A stretch of 64,000 bases of DNA from Promethearchaeota archaeon (GCA_019058445.1 JAHPZA010000006.1:608001-672000); one strand, 5' to 3'; positions 18,735 through 27,121 are shown, counted from the stretch's first letter. Program-made: numbers and translations. The notes: a model not told the origin generated them from the letters alone.

Positions 18735-18946
18735 TTAAATAGAATTAAATATTTTATTCAATATTTTTAAAAATACTGTAATTGTTCCTTTGTTAATCCG
18801 TAATAAGAATAACTCCCTTTTTTCCAACTCTTTATTAAATTTACTTTCTCTAATTTTCTAAGATGATGAGATATCGTAGATTTTGATTTATAAAGGTATT
18901 CTGAACAAAAACATTTTGTAGGAAAATTTAAATTTTCATGACTCAC
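18735..18946 (-). pseudogene. Truncated, frameshifted ArsR-family fragment, paralog of 19780..20184
   Basis: Reads KSKSTISHHLRKLEKVNLIKSWKKGSYSYYGL, then a 1-nt deletion; DNA closely matches 19785-19945. Confidence 0.8.
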
Positions 18947-19779: not shown

Positions 19780-20184
19780 TCATTCAGCAGAATTAAATAC
19801 TTTATTCAATATCTTTAAAAATAACTGTAATTTTTCCCTTTTTAATCCATAATAAGTATAACTCCCTTTTTTCCAACTCTTTATTAAATCCGCTCTCTCT
19901 AACTTCCTAAGATGATGAGAGATTGTAGATTGTGATTTATTAAGGATTGCTTCGAGTTCACAAACACATCTATCTTTCTCTTTCAGCGAGTTGAGAATAA
20001 TTAGGCGTTCCACAGATGCAATAGAGGTGCCAAAATCAGCAATATTTATAAAATCTTCATCATATTTTAAATATTGACCTAAATTCTGTAAATCCTCGAA
20101 ATACTTACTTGAACTACATACACTATCACATGCACATAACATATCCATCAGTTCAGCCTTGCGTTTTGTATTCATGATTAACAC
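19780..20184 (-). CDS. arsR: ArsR/SmtB-family metalloregulator
   Basis: DRCVCELEAIL..SQSTISHHLRKL; divergent from acr3/arsM operon; extra N-terminal CAC..C. Confidence 0.9.
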   Translation of the reverse strand: MLIMNTKRKAELMDMLCACDSVCSSSKYFEDLQNLGQYLKYDEDFINIADFGTSIASVERLIILNSLKEKDRCVCELEAILNKSQSTISHHLRKLERADLIKSWKKGSYTYYGLKREKLQLFLKILNKVFNSAE

Positions 20185-20229
20185 TTTAATGATAAAATTA
20201 GAAGATTCTTTAATTCTCTATATTATATA

Positions 20230-20292
20230 TATAAATCGATAAATATAAATCTAATTGATTTAAATAATCTAAATCGATAACTATAAATTTGA
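20230..20292. promoter_or_regulatory. Repeated AAATCGATAA(A/C)TATAAAT elements, candidate ArsR operators
   Basis: Two near-identical copies between divergent arsR and the operon. Confidence 0.45.
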
Positions 20293-20351
20293 CAAATTCT
20301 ATTAATATTTCAAGCCTTAAAAATATATTTTAAAATATAAAAAAATTAAAA

Positions 20352-21098
20352 ATGAAAACTAATTCACTTAAAAAATTGAAAGTTGGAATAGTATCTGATG
20401 GAAAATATGGTGAAAGAGCTTTTGAGAATATAAAGAGGAACTTTAAAGTATACTGGATTCTCGTTCCAGACATACCTTCTAACATCATGTTAGATGATGA
20501 TTTAGAACTTGATATCCCTGATTGCGATTTATACGTTTCTTACGTTAGACATCCAGATATTATCTTGGAATTAGTAGACCTTCAAAAGCCATTGATACTT
20601 GGCGTATTACCGGGTGTTGGTCTATTAAATCAAGCAAGAACCATAAATCCATATGTAATTCATGCTCCCACCATGTGTTCTCTTGAGAATGATACAGGAA
20701 TTCCAGAAATTGACATATTTACAACCTATTACGGAAGGCCAATTTATGAGCCTAAAATTGATGAAAGTGGAAAATTTAAAGAAATAAAAGTAAAACGCTC
20801 ATCATTATGCGGATCTTCTGAAGCAGGAGCAGATTTTCTTTTAAATAAGGAATTCAACACTGAAAACCTTCAAAATTTTGCATTAAGTGTTTGTCATGAA
20901 TGTCGCGCGCCCCGGTTCGGCCATACATGTGATAAGGAAGTTGCTGGAGTCAATCATTTAGTTTCACTTTTAAATGCGATATCTCCTGAAGATTTGTCTC
21001 AGATTGATCAAAATTTAAGGCTTTTCATCGAAAGTATGAGAGATGAATACTCTAAAAGAATAAATAATTCTAGAATATTATTAAATAAAGTTAGTTAA
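20352..21098 (+). CDS. DUF166-like Cys-rich protein
   Basis: GKYGER, HPDI, TMCSL, YGRP, RSSLCGS, CHECRA..HTC pattern. Confidence 0.65.
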   Translation: MKTNSLKKLKVGIVSDGKYGERAFENIKRNFKVYWILVPDIPSNIMLDDDLELDIPDCDLYVSYVRHPDIILELVDLQKPLILGVLPGVGLLNQARTINPYVIHAPTMCSLENDTGIPEIDIFTTYYGRPIYEPKIDESGKFKEIKVKRSSLCGSSEAGADFLLNKEFNTENLQNFALSVCHECRAPRFGHTCDKEVAGVNHLVSLLNAISPEDLSQIDQNLRLFIESMRDEYSKRINNSRILLNKVS

Positions 21099-21100
21099 AA

Positions 21101-22183
21101 ATGAGTGAAATAAATTTTAAAAACGACAGAATAAATAAAGCAGGAACACCTCATGAGCTAGGACTTTTCGGAAAGTTTTTACCCTTATGGGTAGCTTTAT
21201 GTATTTTTGCCGGAATCGTCCTTTCTCAGGTTGTTCCCGGAATCAGTGAGACGATAAATTCTTGGACAATAGGGCAAATATCCATTCCAATTGGAATCTG
21301 TTTATTCTTAATGATGTATCCAGGAATGCTGAATCTCCAAGCATCTGAATTGAAGAAGCTTGGTAAAAATCCTAAACCTATCATTTTAACTTTAATATCC
21401 AATTGGATTATAGCTCCTTTTGTTGGTTTAATGATGGCAAGAATCTTTTTACAGGGTCATGAGCAGCTAGTCGTAGCAATTATTTTACTTTCTGCCTCCC
21501 CTTGTACCGCTATGGTCCTTGTATGGGGTTGGATGGCCAGAGGGAACCAAGAGCAAAACGTTACCAATACAAGTTTGAATACCATAACAATTATATTTCT
21601 TTATGTTCCTATTGTTATTCTATTAACTGGCATCCAAAATATTCCAATTGATACAACTCTATTAATAATCTCGTTGATATTTTTTATAGGACTTCCATTA
21701 GCATTAGGAATAACATCAAAAAGACTATTAACGCAAACTAAAGGGGAAGAATGGTTTGAAAGCACTTATCGTCCTATGGTAGGAAAAATGTCGATTGTGG
21801 CATTACTGATAACGTTGATTATCCTTTTTTCTTTAAACGGAGATGTTTTACTTAAAAATCCTGAACTTTTACTCCTAGTTAGCATACCTCTCCTGGTTGG
21901 ATTTGCAATCGTCGTTAGCTATAATGTGATTATTACCAAGCTTTTTAAGCTAAAATATAGAGAAGCAGTCGTTACGGTAATCATTGGCTCATCAAGTCAT
22001 TTCGAAATTGCAATTGCTACTGCGATTGCCATATATGGGATTGGATCTATTGCCGCCTTAGGAACCACAATGGGATTGTTCTGGGAAGTTCCTGTGATGC
22101 TTTCAATAGTTTATTTAGGACGATTTCTTCAAAAACGAGGCTTCTGGGAAGTGAAATTTCCAGAAGATTCAAATAATAATTAA
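21101..22183 (+). CDS. acr3: ACR3-family arsenite efflux transporter
   Basis: LMMYP, NWIIAPF, SPCTAMVLVW, SHFEIAIA, EVPVML; about 10 TM. Confidence 0.95.
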   Translation: MSEINFKNDRINKAGTPHELGLFGKFLPLWVALCIFAGIVLSQVVPGISETINSWTIGQISIPIGICLFLMMYPGMLNLQASELKKLGKNPKPIILTLISNWIIAPFVGLMMARIFLQGHEQLVVAIILLSASPCTAMVLVWGWMARGNQEQNVTNTSLNTITIIFLYVPIVILLTGIQNIPIDTTLLIISLIFFIGLPLALGITSKRLLTQTKGEEWFESTYRPMVGKMSIVALLITLIILFSLNGDVLLKNPELLLLVSIPLLVGFAIVVSYNVIITKLFKLKYREAVVTVIIGSSSHFEIAIATAIAIYGIGSIAALGTTMGLFWEVPVMLSIVYLGRFLQKRGFWEVKFPEDSNNN

Positions 22184-22203
22184 ATTTGAGGTGAATAGTA
22201 AAT

Positions 22204-23085
22204 ATGAAAGATGAAAAAGTAAAAATAAGTATTGTCAAGGATGAAAATGTAAAAAAGGTTGTTAGAGAAAAATATGGAATGATAGCAAAATCAAGCAGCT
22301 CCTGTTGTGCGCCTGTAAACTCATGTTGCACACCTATAAGTTCTTGCTGTGGAAGTTCCGAAACAGATATTATGAGTATGATTAGTAAAAACATAGGATA
22401 TAGTGATGAAGAACTTAAATCTGTACCAGATGGGGCTAATCTTGGGCTAGGATGTGGAAACCCTGTAGCCTTGGCTTCATTAAAAGAGGGGGAGACTGTT
22501 CTTGATCTAGGTTCTGGAGCGGGAATTGATTGTTTTTTAGCTGCTAATAAAGTGGGAAAATCTGGGAAGGTTATAGGTATTGATATGACACCTGATATGA
22601 TATTGTCAGCTAGAATGTATGCTGAAAAAAGTAATTACGATAACATTGAATTTAGACTCGGAGAGATCGAACATTTACCAGTAGAAACAACTACTGTAGA
22701 TATTATCATTTCCAATTGTGTAATCAATTTAGTGCCAAATAAAGATAGAGCATTTCAAGAAGCTTATAGAGTGTTAAAACCCGGAGGACGCTTGATGATT
22801 TCAGATATTGTTTTATTAAAAGAACTTCCTGATTTCGTTTTAGAATCAATAGATGCTTATATAGGATGTGTTGCTGGTGCGATATTAAAAGAAGACTATA
22901 TTAAATCAATGGAAAATGCAGGATTTACGAAGATTGAAGTGTTGGATGAAACTATGTTTCCAATCGATGTTTTAACTATTAATCCAAAAGTTATGGAAAT
23001 AGTCAAAGAGATGAATATTGAGCCTCAAATGTTAAAAGACATAGCGAATTCAGTAGTAAGCATAAAAGTAAAAGCATATAAATAA
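22204..23085 (+). CDS. arsM: Arsenite S-adenosylmethionine methyltransferase
   Basis: LGLGCGNP, LDLGSGAGID, SNCVINL, GCVAGA; N-terminal triple CC tract. Confidence 0.95.
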   Translation: MKDEKVKISIVKDENVKKVVREKYGMIAKSSSSCCAPVNSCCTPISSCCGSSETDIMSMISKNIGYSDEELKSVPDGANLGLGCGNPVALASLKEGETVLDLGSGAGIDCFLAANKVGKSGKVIGIDMTPDMILSARMYAEKSNYDNIEFRLGEIEHLPVETTTVDIIISNCVINLVPNKDRAFQEAYRVLKPGGRLMISDIVLLKELPDFVLESIDAYIGCVAGAILKEDYIKSMENAGFTKIEVLDETMFPIDVLTINPKVMEIVKEMNIEPQMLKDIANSVVSIKVKAYK

Positions 23086-23125
23086 TAAAGAAATGAGCGA
23101 ATGTAAGAAAGAATAAGGTGGAAAA

Positions 23126-24775
23126 ATGGCCGTAACCTATATGCGTAGATTGGAGGAAGAACCAGAAACTTACGATTTAAAATTTACAGCTCTCACTAAG
23201 GGACTAAATATCAAAGTTCAAGAGTGGGTATTGCGTCGAATTCCTGATTCCCAATCAATTTTAGAAGTAGGTTGCGGTACTGGCGCTCTAGCATCGAAAA
23301 TGGCACTTAAAGGTAATAATGTTGTTGCAATTGATAAAAACTTTCAAATGATTAATTATGCAATGCAAAATTATCCTTCTGAAGAGAATGTCAATCTTTT
23401 ATATCAAATTGGAACATTTACAGAATTCCCAGTTGAGAAGAATTCAAAGGATATAATTGTGAGTACTTTTATGTTATCTGAGCTTAGACCATTTGAACAT
23501 CAAATATTTTTGCGAAAAGCATGGAGTGCTCTAAAACCAAATGGTCGAATCATATTAGCTGCTGAATTTATTCCTTCAGGAATTTGGAGGATTCCTTTTA
23601 AAATAAAGCGTTGGTGGTTTAAAAAGAAATTACGTAGACTCAGATTAAGAACTACTTTCTTAGTAAAATGGTTTTATAATTATATTGAGCCAATCGGCTT
23701 TAAAATTCAAACCCTAAAAACTTGGAAACACGGTTCCATACAAGCTATGGAATTAGTAAAGCTAGGCAAAGAACCAGGATTTTATCGCCCCAAACCAAAA
23801 AAGTTTAAAGGAATCCGCGCTCAACTAAGGATATATCGATGTTTATTTACTGGTCAGATTGATCATGTTCCCATAGAACCCGGTATTTATCAATCCGGGC
23901 ACCCTAATGAAAATTCCCCCATTATAGTTACAGCGAATTACGAGTATACATACATTAAAGTTATGCGTAACCTAAAAGGACTTGATGCGTGGGTTTTATG
24001 TGTAGATTCCAATGGAATAAATGTATGGTGCGCTGCTCGTGGTAATGATTTTGGAAATGCCCAATTACTTGAAGCAGTGGAGGCAACAGAAATTCGCAAT
24101 CTTACACAGAAAAAAAAACTTTTACTTCCCCAACTCTCTGCTGGTGGAGTTGCTATACCACAATTACCTAGAAATTCAGAAAATTTTCCATTTAAAATTG
24201 TCTATGGCCCAATTTGGTCAAAAGATATTCGGAAGTATAATGATGAACAACCCGTAAGAAAACCAGACTCAATGAAAATTGCTAAATTTACGGTTTCCCA
24301 TCGAATACGAGCAGGGATTACACATACGACTTTTCTTTTAAGAAAAATCTTTCTTTTACCTCTTATAATCATAGCAGGTTTGTTGTTAGCATTAAATTGG
24401 GAAAATAAGTTATGGTGGATTGGAGAATTATTCATGTGGATTATAATAACAAACGCAATTATCGCTTTTTTATTCCCTCTTTCAAATTTTACCAGAAAAT
24501 TCATTAATAAGGGAATTTTCTTTGGAACTATTAATATATTAGTTTTAGGAGGGATTTCTTGGATATTGCATGGATCATTACTCTTTATTCTCTGGAACTT
24601 GAGTTTTTATTTTTGGATTGCATTTTTTTCCACTATGTCTTTTAGCGGATATACAATGTCAACAAGTCCAAGGGAAATTCAAACCGAATATAGGTTGTTT
24701 TTGATGGTAAATAAAATTTTACTTATTATAAGCTTATTTTTTTTAGCTTTTGGAATAATATTTTATATAATTTAA
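23126..24775 (+). CDS. Class I SAM methyltransferase fused to an HgcA-like corrinoid/membrane protein
   Basis: N-term LEVGCGTG and STFMLSEL; C-term EPGIY..SPIIVTANY..GINVWCAARG..LPQLSAGGV..YGPI, TM helices and MSFSGYTMSTSP tail as in HgcA. Confidence 0.85.
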   Translation: MAVTYMRRLEEEPETYDLKFTALTKGLNIKVQEWVLRRIPDSQSILEVGCGTGALASKMALKGNNVVAIDKNFQMINYAMQNYPSEENVNLLYQIGTFTEFPVEKNSKDIIVSTFMLSELRPFEHQIFLRKAWSALKPNGRIILAAEFIPSGIWRIPFKIKRWWFKKKLRRLRLRTTFLVKWFYNYIEPIGFKIQTLKTWKHGSIQAMELVKLGKEPGFYRPKPKKFKGIRAQLRIYRCLFTGQIDHVPIEPGIYQSGHPNENSPIIVTANYEYTYIKVMRNLKGLDAWVLCVDSNGINVWCAARGNDFGNAQLLEAVEATEIRNLTQKKKLLLPQLSAGGVAIPQLPRNSENFPFKIVYGPIWSKDIRKYNDEQPVRKPDSMKIAKFTVSHRIRAGITHTTFLLRKIFLLPLIIIAGLLLALNWENKLWWIGELFMWIIITNAIIAFLFPLSNFTRKFINKGIFFGTINILVLGGISWILHGSLLFILWNLSFYFWIAFFSTMSFSGYTMSTSPREIQTEYRLFLMVNKILLIISLFFLAFGIIFYII

Positions 24776-24812
24776 AATGAAGAATTAAAAAAAAATCATA
24801 AAAAAAATAAAA

Positions 24813-25124
24813 ATGACAGAATTAAAATCAAATCAAAGTTCATGCTGCACTCCGCAAGCGATTGTGCTTCCTCGTATTTTTATAAATACTTCTACATGTA
24901 CGGGGTGTGGCTTATGCGGAGAAGTATGCCCTTTCGGTCTCCCTAAACAGAATAATTCAGGAAAGTACGAAATACCCCATCCCGAACTATGCACTGAATG
25001 TAGTGCTTGTTTTAGAAACTGCCCTACACAAGCCATTATGATGCAAGAACAAAAAGGATGTGGTTGTTTATGGGATACACGTCAAAGAGCAAAAAATTCA
25101 CAGCAAAATTTATGCTGTGGTTAA
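24813..25124 (+). CDS. HgcB-like 2x[4Fe-4S] ferredoxin
   Basis: CTGCGLCGEVCP and CTECSACFRNCP, then KGCGC and terminal CCG; directly after hgcA-like gene. Confidence 0.85.
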   Translation: MTELKSNQSSCCTPQAIVLPRIFINTSTCTGCGLCGEVCPFGLPKQNNSGKYEIPHPELCTECSACFRNCPTQAIMMQEQKGCGCLWDTRQRAKNSQQNLCCG

Positions 25125-25147
25125 ACTAAAATTTAAAGTGTATTAAT

Positions 25148-25537
25148 ATGGAAAAAGAAGAATTAAAAAAAATTGAAAATTCTTGTTGTACACAAAGCAC
25201 ATCGTGCTGTGGAAGTGCTGAGTCAGATCTTATCGATACATCAACTAATAAGGGGATTAAAAATGAATTAGATCCAAGTAAGCTAAATGTTGATATATAT
25301 GTTCCTCTAGACGCCTGTGCATGCGAGTGGTCTCAATTTATGAATCTTATTTTTAGTGCCCTTACACCACATATTAAATATATTAAATATGAAACAAAAA
25401 ACTTAAATTCTAAAGAAGCTCGAAGCCTTAATATTCGGAGCAAATGCGTTATAGTTGACGGAGAAAAAAAATATACAACCTCATATGCCTTAAAGAAAGA
25501 TCTACCTAATTTATTGAAAGAAAAGGGAATCCTATAA
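25148..25537 (+). CDS. Cys-rich small protein, probable thioredoxin-like fold (ArsD-like chaperone?)
   Basis: N-term SCCTQSTSCCG; DIYVPLDACAC; CVIVDGE. Confidence 0.6.
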   Translation: MEKEELKKIENSCCTQSTSCCGSAESDLIDTSTNKGIKNELDPSKLNVDIYVPLDACACEWSQFMNLIFSALTPHIKYIKYETKNLNSKEARSLNIRSKCVIVDGEKKYTTSYALKKDLPNLLKEKGIL

Positions 25538-25574
25538 ATTTAAATTCAAATTAAAAGCACAAGGGGTAATTATA

Positions 25575-26045
25575 ATGAAAAAGATTTTTTTTGATATCAA
25601 TTTACCAATAAAGAATTTTCAAAAGGGTAAGAAGTACACAGTTGAAGTAAAAGACAACGCTACATTTTTAGAATGTCTCGCGATGGTTGATAAGCAAGAA
25701 CTCGAAGATCCAAAATCCATTTTTCCTATAAACGAGGGATTTATCCACAATTATTTACAGTTATTGGTTAACATCGAAGAAAATTATATTTACGATGATG
25801 TAGGGGTATATGCTTATGGTCCGGATGAAAATGGACTTATGAGAAAATTCATTCCAATTAGAGATAATGTAGAATTTAACGTATATCCTGACAGTGAAAT
25901 TCAATTACAACCTGATGTTGGATGTTGATGAGAAGCGGTGCAAGATCGGCTGGATATTGGAAAATTTAAAACAGTCCTACGTAAACGATATGGGAAAGAT
26001 AACGATTATTTTGCACATTACTTTAAAAAAGAAAAAGAAAAATAA
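25575..26045 (+). CDS. MoaD/ThiS/Urm1-like ubiquitin-fold protein, candidate selenoprotein with C-U-U motif (156 aa with readthrough; 117 aa if TGA is stop)
   Basis: Beta-grasp pattern ending EIQLQPDVGC; TGA TGA at 25926-25931; 37 further open codons to TAA 26043-26045; SECIS-like hairpin follows. Confidence 0.72.
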
Positions 26046-26047
26046 TA

Positions 26048-26093
26048 TGTTGAATGAAATCTTTCAAAAAATTGTAGTGAAAGATTGACAATA
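26048..26093 (+). ncRNA. SECIS-like element (eukaryote/Lokiarchaeia type) in 3' UTR
   Basis: TGTTG/CAATA lower stem, AAU bulge with tandem GA/GA kink-turn core (AUGA..GA), AATCTTTCA/TGAAAGATT upper stem, A-rich loop AAAAATTGTAG. Confidence 0.75.
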
Positions 26094-26161
26094 GGACCGC
26101 CTCCTATATTTCTTAATGAATAATTTAAAAAATCTCGTTATATTTTCTATCGTGAATATAT

Positions 26162-27121
26162 ATGGATATTTTCTCACATTTTTTATTTGCAATGCTGCTA
26201 TGTGTTTACTTTATGAGGTCATCCAGCGAGGAACTTGTAATTTTTGCAGGTTTAATGGCAGTATTGGCTGATTTTGATGTTTTTTTGCATTCTTTTAAAG
26301 TTGTGAGAAAATCTAAATTGTTGACCCATAAAGGAATTTCTCACTCTTATTTTGCTGCTCTAATTGTGTCTGCGCCTGCTGCGGGTATTTTTTCTTTAAT
26401 AACAGGAGAATCATTTCTACTATCTTGGATGATTGGCTTTATTTTTTATAGTCTTCATGTTACCCTCGATGCTTCAGCCGCATCTAAAATCCCTCTTTTT
26501 TATCCCATCTCAAAGAAACGGTTTCGATTTTTTATCGATCGGGCAATAAACCCTATATTAGCAATGATTTCAGGTATAGTTCTTCTTTTTTATTTGATTA
26601 TTTATTTTGTTAGTCCCGAGATTTTTTATTCTGATTTAATATATTACGTCTCATTGTTTTATTTCGGATATTTAGCTTACAAAATACTTACTAAAATTTG
26701 GGTTCAATTAAGACTGCCCAAAAATCAAAAATATATCCCCGGAATTCTTCCATTTGTTTACTATATTTACGAAAACCACAATTCAGATGCTAGGCTAATA
26801 TTTACACTCTCCAAAAAATATCAATTTCTTCCGAAAACTATGAAATTAATAGAAACTGAAATTATAACTGGATCTAAAGAAATGGAATATTTTAATAAAG
26901 CGAAAACGCTTAGCAAAAACTATATGTTCTTTTCTAAATGGGAGGCAGTAATTCCGATAATCTTAGACAATAATCGGTTTGTTGTTGTATTGCTTTTTTT
27001 AGCCGAAAGTTATGCTAATGGAAGAGCCTATACACTTGAAGTTGTTTTTGATAAAAATTCAAAAGAGCTGGTCCATATCTCTGATGGATTTGGTCGTGGT
27101 TTAACTGATTACCACAGCTAA
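26162..27121 (+). CDS. Membrane-bound metal-dependent hydrolase (YdjM-like)
   Basis: MDIFSH, ADFD, HKGISHS, HVTLD; TM helices. Confidence 0.85.
   Translation: MDIFSHFLFAMLLCVYFMRSSSEELVIFAGLMAVLADFDVFLHSFKVVRKSKLLTHKGISHSYFAALIVSAPAAGIFSLITGESFLLSWMIGFIFYSLHVTLDASAASKIPLFYPISKKRFRFFIDRAINPILAMISGIVLLFYLIIYFVSPEIFYSDLIYYVSLFYFGYLAYKILTKIWVQLRLPKNQKYIPGILPFVYYIYENHNSDARLIFTLSKKYQFLPKTMKLIETEIITGSKEMEYFNKAKTLSKNYMFFSKWEAVIPIILDNNRFVVVLLFLAESYANGRAYTLEVVFDKNSKELVHISDGFGRGLTDYHS

Follow-up and report, generated by a model that had tools for sequence, protein, structure and literature searches.

The closest described relatives of the locus considered here are bacterial. In Pseudodesulfovibrio mercurii ND132 (ArsR2-hgcAB) and in the ars gene sets of bacterial metagenome-assembled genomes (MAGs), an ArsR-type regulator accompanies a corrinoid methyltransferase (HgcA) and a ferredoxin (HgcB), with acr3, arsM or arsC nearby, and both the linkage of ArsR to hgcAB and a response to As(III) have been reported in bacteria (Gionfriddo et al., 10.1101/2022.10.17.512643). 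We analysed a comparable arrangement in a 64,000-nucleotide stretch of a Promethearchaeota archaeon genome (GCA_019058445.1 JAHPZA010000006.1:608001-672000; this whole stretch is called the window below), in which arsR, on the minus strand, diverges from seven co-oriented plus-strand genes within 19780-26045. In order, the seven encode a DUF166 protein, an Acr3-type permease, ArsM, a fusion of an S-adenosylmethionine (SAM) methyltransferase to an HgcA-like protein, an HgcB-like ferredoxin, a Cys-rich protein with a CxC motif (the CxC protein), and a protein containing Cys followed by two selenocysteines (Sec), which we call the CUU protein. A tie between HgcAB and arsenic is common to the bacterial work and to this locus. 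Unlike ND132-type loci, however, the archaeal one belongs to an Asgard host and a distinct HgcA-like clade, with a SAM methyltransferase fused on and AARG in the cap helix, and it places the HgcA-like/HgcB-like pair inside an apparent acr3 operon alongside two further small proteins, of which one is a selenoprotein. We are highly confident that the operon and the CUU selenoprotein are both real, and on balance we favour the view that the operon is an ArsR-controlled metalloid-handling unit of a Lokiarchaeia-class Asgard archaeon, built of separable modules.

Selenocysteine has already been described in HgcAB systems. Most HgcA proteins of bacteria have a Cys-Sec motif (PCUGP) in an extension at their N terminus, and HgcB carries Sec73 in occasional cases (Haft and Gwadz, 10.1101/2022.07.06.499078). 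There, as here, vicinal Cys/Sec residues that presumably bind soft metals or metalloids accompany an HgcAB-type system. In bacteria the Cys-Sec pair lies within HgcA itself, whereas the Asgard HgcA-like protein lacks Sec, and the C-U-U triad is found on a separate beta-grasp protein that is also present in operons without the HgcA-like gene. In the Asgard fusion the methyltransferase replaces the N-terminal extension of HgcA, and the C-U-U protein is encoded two genes downstream. The NCBIfam families CpaM (NF043040) and HgcAB-like (NF043039), which have no published function, use the same class I SAM methyltransferase, HgcA-like and HgcB-like modules, but the fusion point differs: the CpaM system has a free CpaM and an HgcA-HgcB fusion, and the present locus a methyltransferase-HgcA fusion and a free HgcB. 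The hgcAB-arsenic link, Sec in HgcAB systems and the CpaM/HgcAB-like modules are therefore known. New are the family of CUU beta-grasp selenoproteins, missing from Pfam, NCBIfam release 20 and the published survey of the Asgard selenoproteome, an Asgard CxC thioredoxin-fold family, and the systematic placement of both proteins in ars operons.

The small open reading frame (ORF) at 25575-25928 ends in GGA TGT TGA TGA and encodes 117 aa up to the first TGA. Its frame remains open for 37 more codons past both TGAs (25926-25928 and 25929-25931, the Sec codons of a G-C-Sec-Sec motif), to a TAA at 26043-26045. In a six-frame search, the read-through product aligned past both TGAs, as far as residue 153 or so, in 131 of the 154 genomes of the order; nearly all of these matches hold two TGAs, and some hold three. 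With a profile, the family was detected in 138 of 400 genomes of the phylum, distributed over seven families of one class, and in none of 239 other genomes, and members at 22-33% identity retain (G/Q/M)-C-U-U. Among 33 genes, mean pairwise differences at the first, second and third codon positions are 0.237/0.126/0.446 upstream of the TGAs and 0.247/0.140/0.440 over the 32 codons downstream. In the same genes the two TGAs never change, while the Gly and Cys codons beside them show synonymous changes.

An exhaustive HMMER search of 1.84 billion representatives recovered only 20 CUU proteins, most cut at residue 117, and the two that cross the site carry W-W, the TGAs having been called under code 4. 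No Cys form is present among these 20 proteins from the 1.84 billion representatives, nor in the 400 genomes; the family appears to be Sec-only, which is unusual but not disqualifying. The CUU protein has no Pfam or NCBIfam match, even at E<=10. Global reassignment of TGA was considered and rejected: TGA terminates arsR and three of the window's 37 long ORFs. The open frame, the conserved read-through and a hairpin resembling a selenocysteine insertion sequence (SECIS) just beyond the gene all agree with the first-pass annotation, which had proposed a C-U-U selenoprotein from the sequence.

Asgard archaea use type I, eukaryote-like SECIS elements with an AUGA_GA core and a run of A residues in the apical loop (PMC11227280). 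The element here begins three bases past the stop codon and reads TTG-A-AUGA-AAUCUUUCA-(A-rich loop)-UGAAAGAUU-GA-CAA, comprising a TTG/CAA lower stem, the AUGA..GA core, a 9-bp upper stem and an A-rich apical loop. It thus shares with the described elements a position in the 3' untranslated region (UTR), the core, and the A-run that opens the apical loop (Mariotti 2016, PMC4989117; Huang 2024, PMC11227280). In an alignment of 19 homologous 3'-UTRs, 93% of cells are paired, as compared with 46-56% when the partner strand is slid; 10 of 17 pairs exhibit compensatory changes, and none of 500 shuffles reaches any of the observed measures. The minimum-free-energy fold yields this hairpin and a second one (z = -1.97). 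The second (AGGA-5 nt-UCCU) lies directly 3' of the SECIS in nearly all members, even at 25% protein identity, is 89% paired with double changes at 2 pairs, and may be a terminator or a part of the SECIS. CUU differs from the published Asgard SECIS-containing genes in being outside the seven listed families, in the conserved hairpin that follows, and in that one element can apparently serve two tandem genes. The instance of this is locus L050, in which a SECIS is found only after the downstream member of two tandem CUU paralogues, and may serve both.

Rfam (E<=10) reports no SECIS or other RNA across 19.5-27.5 kb of the window. A covariance model of the SECIS, searched against the genome, found its own site plus four other matches (E 0.17-4.4), which were rejected as SECIS elements for lack of a plausible selenoprotein gene upstream. 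Because only its own site was credible, the model depends too closely on sequence to be useful for detecting SECIS elements across a genome. The same genome encodes selD, itself with an in-frame TGA (HGUSC; G000:C10:463853-464689), and selB, which scores 242.3 bits against a cut-off of 242.25. The selD 3'-UTR has its own AUGA..stem..GA hairpin.

Paralogues of CUU form classes that hold two to three chalcogen residues, as GCUU, as UGUU, or as UU with an extra conserved Cys elsewhere. We read this pattern as suggesting that the number of ligands is conserved rather than their spacing. Two paralogues, of the GCUU and HADUU types, share a locus in L050 (11998-12453 and 12515-12940), L043, L046, L047 and L048; they are directly in tandem in L050 and L047, and a YdjM gene separates them in the other three. 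A third class, with three in-frame TGAs (..SSA-U-G-U-U..; P0009, P0012), is present in genomes G022, G028, G033, G034, G026, G037 and G023. In one orthologue (L022, G112:C78) a further TGA takes the place of a conserved Gly (RLDI-U-NFKT); it may represent a third Sec, a mutation or an error of sequencing.

An AlphaFold2 (AF2) model of the CUU protein, built from a 27-row alignment, has a predicted local distance difference test (pLDDT) score of 90 and a predicted template-modelling (pTM) score of 0.87. In the model, residues 1-117 adopt a beta-grasp fold, followed by the G-C-Sec-Sec loop and a well-predicted C-terminal helical extension. All top-ranking structural matches are beta-grasp proteins (Z 5.6-7.2), and include SAMP1 (Z 7.2), CysO (Z 7.0), MoaD-like proteins (about Z 6), HVO_2177, Urm1 and the transcobalamin beta domain. 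The CUU protein resembles the MoaD, ThiS, CysO, SAMP and Urm1 carriers in its fold and in the pattern of its last strand, and the C-U-U triad is located exactly where these ubiquitin-like sulfur carriers have their Gly-Gly end. However, the carriers terminate in a free Gly-Gly, and CUU has Gly-Cys-Sec-Sec as an internal loop followed by 37 helical residues. Thiocarboxylate, E1-type adenylation or conjugation chemistry is therefore excluded. The metal-linked double selenoproteins of bacteria (MbdU and the ArsM/AhpD and ArsM/DUF2284 selenoproteins; Haft and Tolstoy 2025, as listed in PMC13188914) have, like CUU, several Sec residues and arsenic or metal gene neighbourhoods. These proteins differ from CUU in having a bacterial SECIS inside the ORF and other folds and motifs, and exhibit no homology to it.

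The CxC protein consists of a disordered, lineage-specific CC..CC tail (residues 1-44) and a core of about 85 residues that is predicted with a pLDDT of about 90. The core matches thioredoxin with Z 10.2, a root-mean-square deviation of 2.0 over 78 residues, and a Foldseek probability of 1.0. An invariant motif, IYVPL-x-C-A-C-x-W, stands in place of CxxC. No sequence match was found in the PDB, nor in Pfam or NCBIfam at E<=10. In sequence databases the protein is represented by 131 clusters with no Pfam domain, and those with a labelled source are Asgard "hypothetical proteins". ArsD uses Cys12, Cys13 and Cys18 as its metallochaperone site. ArsD and ArsE (PF13192; ArsE is named in 10.1101/2022.10.17.512643) are similarly small thioredoxin-fold proteins of ars operons with clustered Cys residues at the start of helix 1, and vicinal-Cys tails are another common feature, but the CxC motif and an apparent confinement to Asgard archaea set the CxC protein apart. 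No Pfam family, ArsD (PF06953) included, matched it at E<=10, although HMMER filters may hide weak matches.

Residues 1-215 of the fusion protein are CpaM-like (NF043040, 135.1 bits against a cut-off of 180, aligned over positions 3-213 of 216), and residues 230-549 constitute an HgcA-like corrinoid and membrane domain (NF040863, 165.9 bits, cut-off 275; NF043039, 166 bits, cut-off 285; Pfam CdhD, 49.5 bits). The match to the HgcA model NF040863 extends over positions 29-319 of 325. The cap-helix sequence, NVWCAARG, is constant in 119 of 121 database homologues; the canonical HgcA motif is reportedly N(V/I)WCA(A/G)GK, so that the Cys ligand is kept and RG stands for GK. The HgcB-like protein has two CX2CX2CX3CP motifs, CC at the N terminus, a CGC, and LCCG at the C terminus. 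The genome has no HgcA that scores above the cut-off. Of the 154 genomes of the order, 117 have the fusion, and the HgcB-like gene follows it in 20 of 20 independent loci. Since the cobalamin of HgcAB receives its methyl group from SAM rather than from methyl-tetrahydrofolate (Zheng et al., PMC11588087), a fused SAM methyltransferase domain is easy to rationalise. The same observation weakens an earlier suggestion that the locus combines two methylation chemistries: arsM and the corrinoid fusion are both there, but the distinction between them is blurred now that SAM is known to feed HgcAB.

To compare neighbourhoods, we used a CUU-anchored synteny set of 20 loci of about 17 kb. These contain arsR in 18 cases, acr3 in 17, the CxC gene in 16, a YdjM gene in 12, and the fusion with the HgcB-like gene in 7. 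The CUU gene is also found without the CxC gene (L035, L051), and in family f4 the layout is acr3 <-> arsR-CUU. When coordinates from the genome searches for CUU and for the fusion were compared, the fusion was within 2 kb of the CUU gene in about 42 genomes (genera g1, g5, g7, g12 and g13, and some of g11) and elsewhere in about 40, so that roughly half the genomes with both genes have them side by side. Among 20 fusion loci away from CUU, arsR is near in 9, three of which also have acr3, two in family f3. Orthologues of arsM, present in 50 of the 154 genomes, adjoin the CUU gene in genera g1, g9 and g5. A fusion of the CxC domain to the C terminus of ArsM is seen directly in L042 (5507-6625, minus strand), and ArsM frames of 372-375 aa in at least four genomes, including G039, G038 and G036 by frame length, correspond to it. 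Among the loci compared, only the present one and that of G016 have arsM and the HgcA-like fusion in one cluster. DUF166 orthologues occur in 46 of the 154 genomes, and at least 28 of the 46 are no more than 6 kb from the fusion or the CUU gene.

The conserved core of these loci is arsR-acr3-(CxC protein)-CUU, to which the HgcA-like pair, arsM and DUF166 are frequent, separable additions. Synteny in relatives, the absence of which had been set beforehand as grounds for abandoning the proposal, was found. Because the gene order recurs, the cluster is far beyond chance. The functional hint for DUF166 is strengthened by the proximity of its orthologues to the cluster genes, and the suspected link of HgcA-like proteins to arsenic genes is upheld by the finding that the pair has arsR/acr3 surroundings in two of the order's families. 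The idea of a single operon pathway stands only in part. A compact unit does diverge from a CVC-bearing ArsR with a promoter repeat that is kept in relatives, but the seven genes do not form one fixed pathway, as the modules are separable.

The coordinates of the features are given in Table 1. The ORF list and the Pfam and NCBIfam scans agree with the earlier description of seven co-oriented genes with gaps of 2-40 bp and a divergent arsR, in gene positions as well as in family assignments; the gaps from DUF166 to the CUU gene are 2, 20, 40, 37, 23 and 37 bp. The window is AT-rich, with about 30% GC, and closely related database entries carry the labels of Promethearchaeota or Lokiarchaeota MAGs. 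The Acr3 protein aligns to positions 1-325 of 327 of TIGR00832 and falls just short of that model's cut-off. The ArsM translation has the As-binding Cys motifs GLGCGNP, SNCVINL and GCVAGA and a CC-rich N-terminal tail, and SCC..CC tails are common to the ArsM, HgcB-like and Cys-rich proteins. The DUF166 protein keeps the Cys motifs TMCS, SLCGSS and CHECRAPRFGHTC. In some DUF166 homologues a single TGA was considered as a Sec codon and rejected, being an ordinary stop near the C terminus.

Table 1. Positions of genes and RNA or DNA elements in and around the arsR-divergent cluster, numbered from the first nucleotide of the window.
Feature	Position	Strand	Evidence
arsR, ArsR/SmtB metalloregulator	19780..20184	-	Pfam HTH_5 61.5 bits; NCBIfam NF033788 69.7 bits, cut-off 55
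Operator-like repeats, divergent promoter	20233..20280	.	AAATCGAT at 20233 and 20272; inverted copy ATTGATTT at 20254
DUF166 protein	20352..21098	+	Pfam DUF166 93.2 bits
acr3, Acr3-type arsenite efflux permease	21101..22183	+	TIGR00832 281.9 bits, cut-off 282.8; Pfam SBF 133 bits
arsM, arsenite S-adenosylmethionine methyltransferase	22204..23085	+	NF008823 347.3 bits, cut-off 263
CpaM-like class I SAM methyltransferase::HgcA-like fusion, 549 aa	23126..24775	+	NF043040, NF040863, NF043039, Pfam CdhD
HgcB-like 2x[4Fe-4S] ferredoxin	24813..25124	+	NF040864 50.8 bits, under cut-off 99
Cys-rich CxC protein, 129 aa	25148..25537	+	Thioredoxin-fold core by AF2; no Pfam/NCBIfam match
CUU selenoprotein gene, 156 aa product	25575..26045	+	Read-through conservation, SECIS, beta-grasp model
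SECIS, Asgard/eukaryote-like type I	26049..26092	+	Covariation, minimum-free-energy fold, consensus of PMC11227280
Second short hairpin, T-AGGA-CCGCC-TCCT-A	26093..26107	+	Helix 3 of covariation test
YdjM-family membrane protein, conserved downstream neighbour; membership of unit uncertain	26162..27121	+	Pfam YdjM 64 bits; next to the CUU gene in 12 of 20 loci

The ArsR translation carries a C-V-C metalloid motif (RCVCEL) and an N-terminal LCACDSVC. Upstream of its gene, the motif TAAATCGATAAATATAAAT / CAAATCGA of the divergent promoter recurs in the close-relative loci L035, L036, L037, L041 and L042, and the arsR-operon spacers of more distant relatives contain the palindrome TTCAAATC..ATTTGAA. 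Judging from these sequences, the repeats in the promoter are a putative operator to which ArsR may bind.

If the operon handles metalloids, As(III) would release ArsR and allow transcription of the downstream genes, and Acr3 would export As(III). The C-U-U triad would offer three soft ligands, which is the coordination preferred by As(III). The CUU and CxC proteins, together with the CC tails of ArsM, HgcB and the CxC protein, might then capture As(III) or methyl-As(III), and the two small proteins might ferry either form between the pump and the two enzymes that methylate it. ArsM would methylate the soft metalloid directly from SAM, and the fusion would do so from SAM via methyl-cobalamin, with HgcB as the reductant of Co(II). 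The CUU protein could act in trans, in a manner analogous to the Cys-Sec motif in the N-terminal extension of bacterial HgcA. We give about an even chance to a role of CUU as a metalloid-binding carrier, and the question of whether the native substrate of the HgcA-like enzyme is As rather than Hg seems to us evenly poised. The most specific version, in which CUU is a dedicated selenium-based carrier that presents As(III) or another soft metalloid to the methyl-cobalamin of the HgcA-like protein and to ArsM and passes the product to Acr3, is tentative, and we would sooner expect it to be wrong in some part than right throughout.

Several observations weigh against a dedicated metalloid-handling operon with CUU as its carrier. 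The HgcA-like, HgcB-like and CpaM-like parts all score under their NCBIfam cut-offs, and the CUU fold has structural matches of moderate strength (Z about 7). In family f3, distantly related CUU proteins lie outside ars contexts, so the role of the family may be broader. Often the HgcA-like pair is found away from ars genes, under a MarR-type regulator, as in many g11 genomes, where it stands alone. Co-transcription of the cluster is presumed from the spacing of its genes. A tRNA-Sec was not found with Rfam, and ARAGORN finds only 5 tRNA genes in the 4.6 Mb assembly; because so few tRNAs are detected at all, this blank is uninformative. The missing tRNA genes may contain introns or be unassembled.

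The main alternative is that the CUU and CxC proteins are a redox couple, working by selenenylsulfide or diselenide exchange, rather than a carrier. We think this unlikely, although Sec residues are characteristic of redox catalysts, the fold of the CxC protein is that of thioredoxin, with the two Cys residues placed where CxxC would be, and the two genes adjoin in most loci. A function for the couple can be imagined: no ArsC above the cut-off is present in this genome, which is 92.6% complete, and the pair might supply the missing arsenate or methylarsenate reductase, or might hold the Cys tails of ArsM and HgcB in the reduced state. However, CxC is not a canonical CxxC, and the CUU gene persists where the CxC gene is absent. 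Moreover, three clustered chalcogens whose number, and not spacing, is kept among paralogues are a better fit to ligand binding.

The HgcA-like/HgcB-like pair might instead be a true mercury methylase, in which case the locus would be a mixed As/Hg island and CUU would act on Hg(II) or methylmercury. Coverage of most of the HgcA model, the cap-helix Cys, the C-terminal CC of the HgcB-like protein and the CU motif used by bacterial HgcA (10.1101/2022.07.06.499078) are all consistent with this idea, which we nevertheless consider improbable. The scores are far under the cut-offs for HgcA and HgcB, the cap helix has AARG and not A(A/G)GK, and no mer genes are present among the ORFs annotated at 17.2-30.4 kb of the window, where the regulators and the pump are of arsenic type. 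Also, Asgard sequences fall into the fused-HgcAB clade, and the one tested member of this clade, from P. furiosus, does not methylate Hg (Lin et al., 10.1101/2022.11.21.517362).

A further explanation is that the genes became neighbours through modular accretion, that they belong to several transcription units with unrelated roles, and that the association of CUU with ars genes is hitch-hiking. The modules are indeed found separately in relatives, and the sequencing runs listed for the locus comprise sediment and soil DNA with no RNA run. Yet the genes lie on one strand with gaps of at most 40 bp, and a scan for bacterial-type promoters and terminators, which is uninformative for an archaeal host, gave no convincing terminators between them. 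The same neighbours recur across six genera, the ars link extends to two further families, and ArsM has been joined to the CxC protein by gene fusion, all of which makes accretion very improbable. That TGA TGA is a plain double stop, with the downstream conservation belonging to something else, can be virtually dismissed. Tandem stops do exist, and gene-calling programs stop at residue 117, but in more than 130 genomes the conservation across the site is that of in-frame coding sequence, the two TGAs do not vary, and a SECIS is present, as are selD and selB.

The CUU proteins add a widespread selenoprotein family that annotation has missed, one whose members have Sec at two neighbouring positions and for which no Cys form was seen. 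The Asgard selenoproteome was thought to consist of seven families, all of them found by homology; surveys that use homology alone miss lineage-specific selenoproteins. CUU would be the first selenoprotein linked to metalloid resistance in archaea. For the question of what HgcAB is for, the locus offers a concrete system, in which a SAM-methyltransferase-fused HgcA-like protein, a ferredoxin, a possible selenium-based carrier and an arsenite pump are under one arsenic sensor. If CUU is such a carrier, then the native job of HgcAB-type proteins, at least in Asgard archaea, could be SAM-driven methylation of metalloids for detoxification, and Hg methylation a side reaction. DUF166 and the Asgard-only thioredoxin-fold family gain their first functional context.

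Other features of the relatives may bear on similar processes. Where the HgcA-like/HgcB pair is outside an ars operon, a conserved MarR-family regulator of 154 aa, with Cys-Cys pairs near both ends, is encoded just upstream of it (L060:7205-7669, also L065, L067, L069 and L073); this protein may provide the pair with another type of thiol-based sensor. Some g11 genomes have a different class I methyltransferase, of 347 aa, between acr3 and the CxC gene (L043:9127-10170, minus strand), which may be a divergent metalloid methylase. In a distant family, a CUU homologue follows a 537-aa membrane protein that by eye resembles cation-diffusion facilitators (L080:5145-6758, plus strand). Within the window itself, a 59-aa ORF at 18767-18946 on the minus strand matches only the C-terminal half of ArsR (HTH_5, 34 bits) and closely resembles the end of the nearby arsR, of which it is probably a truncated duplicate.

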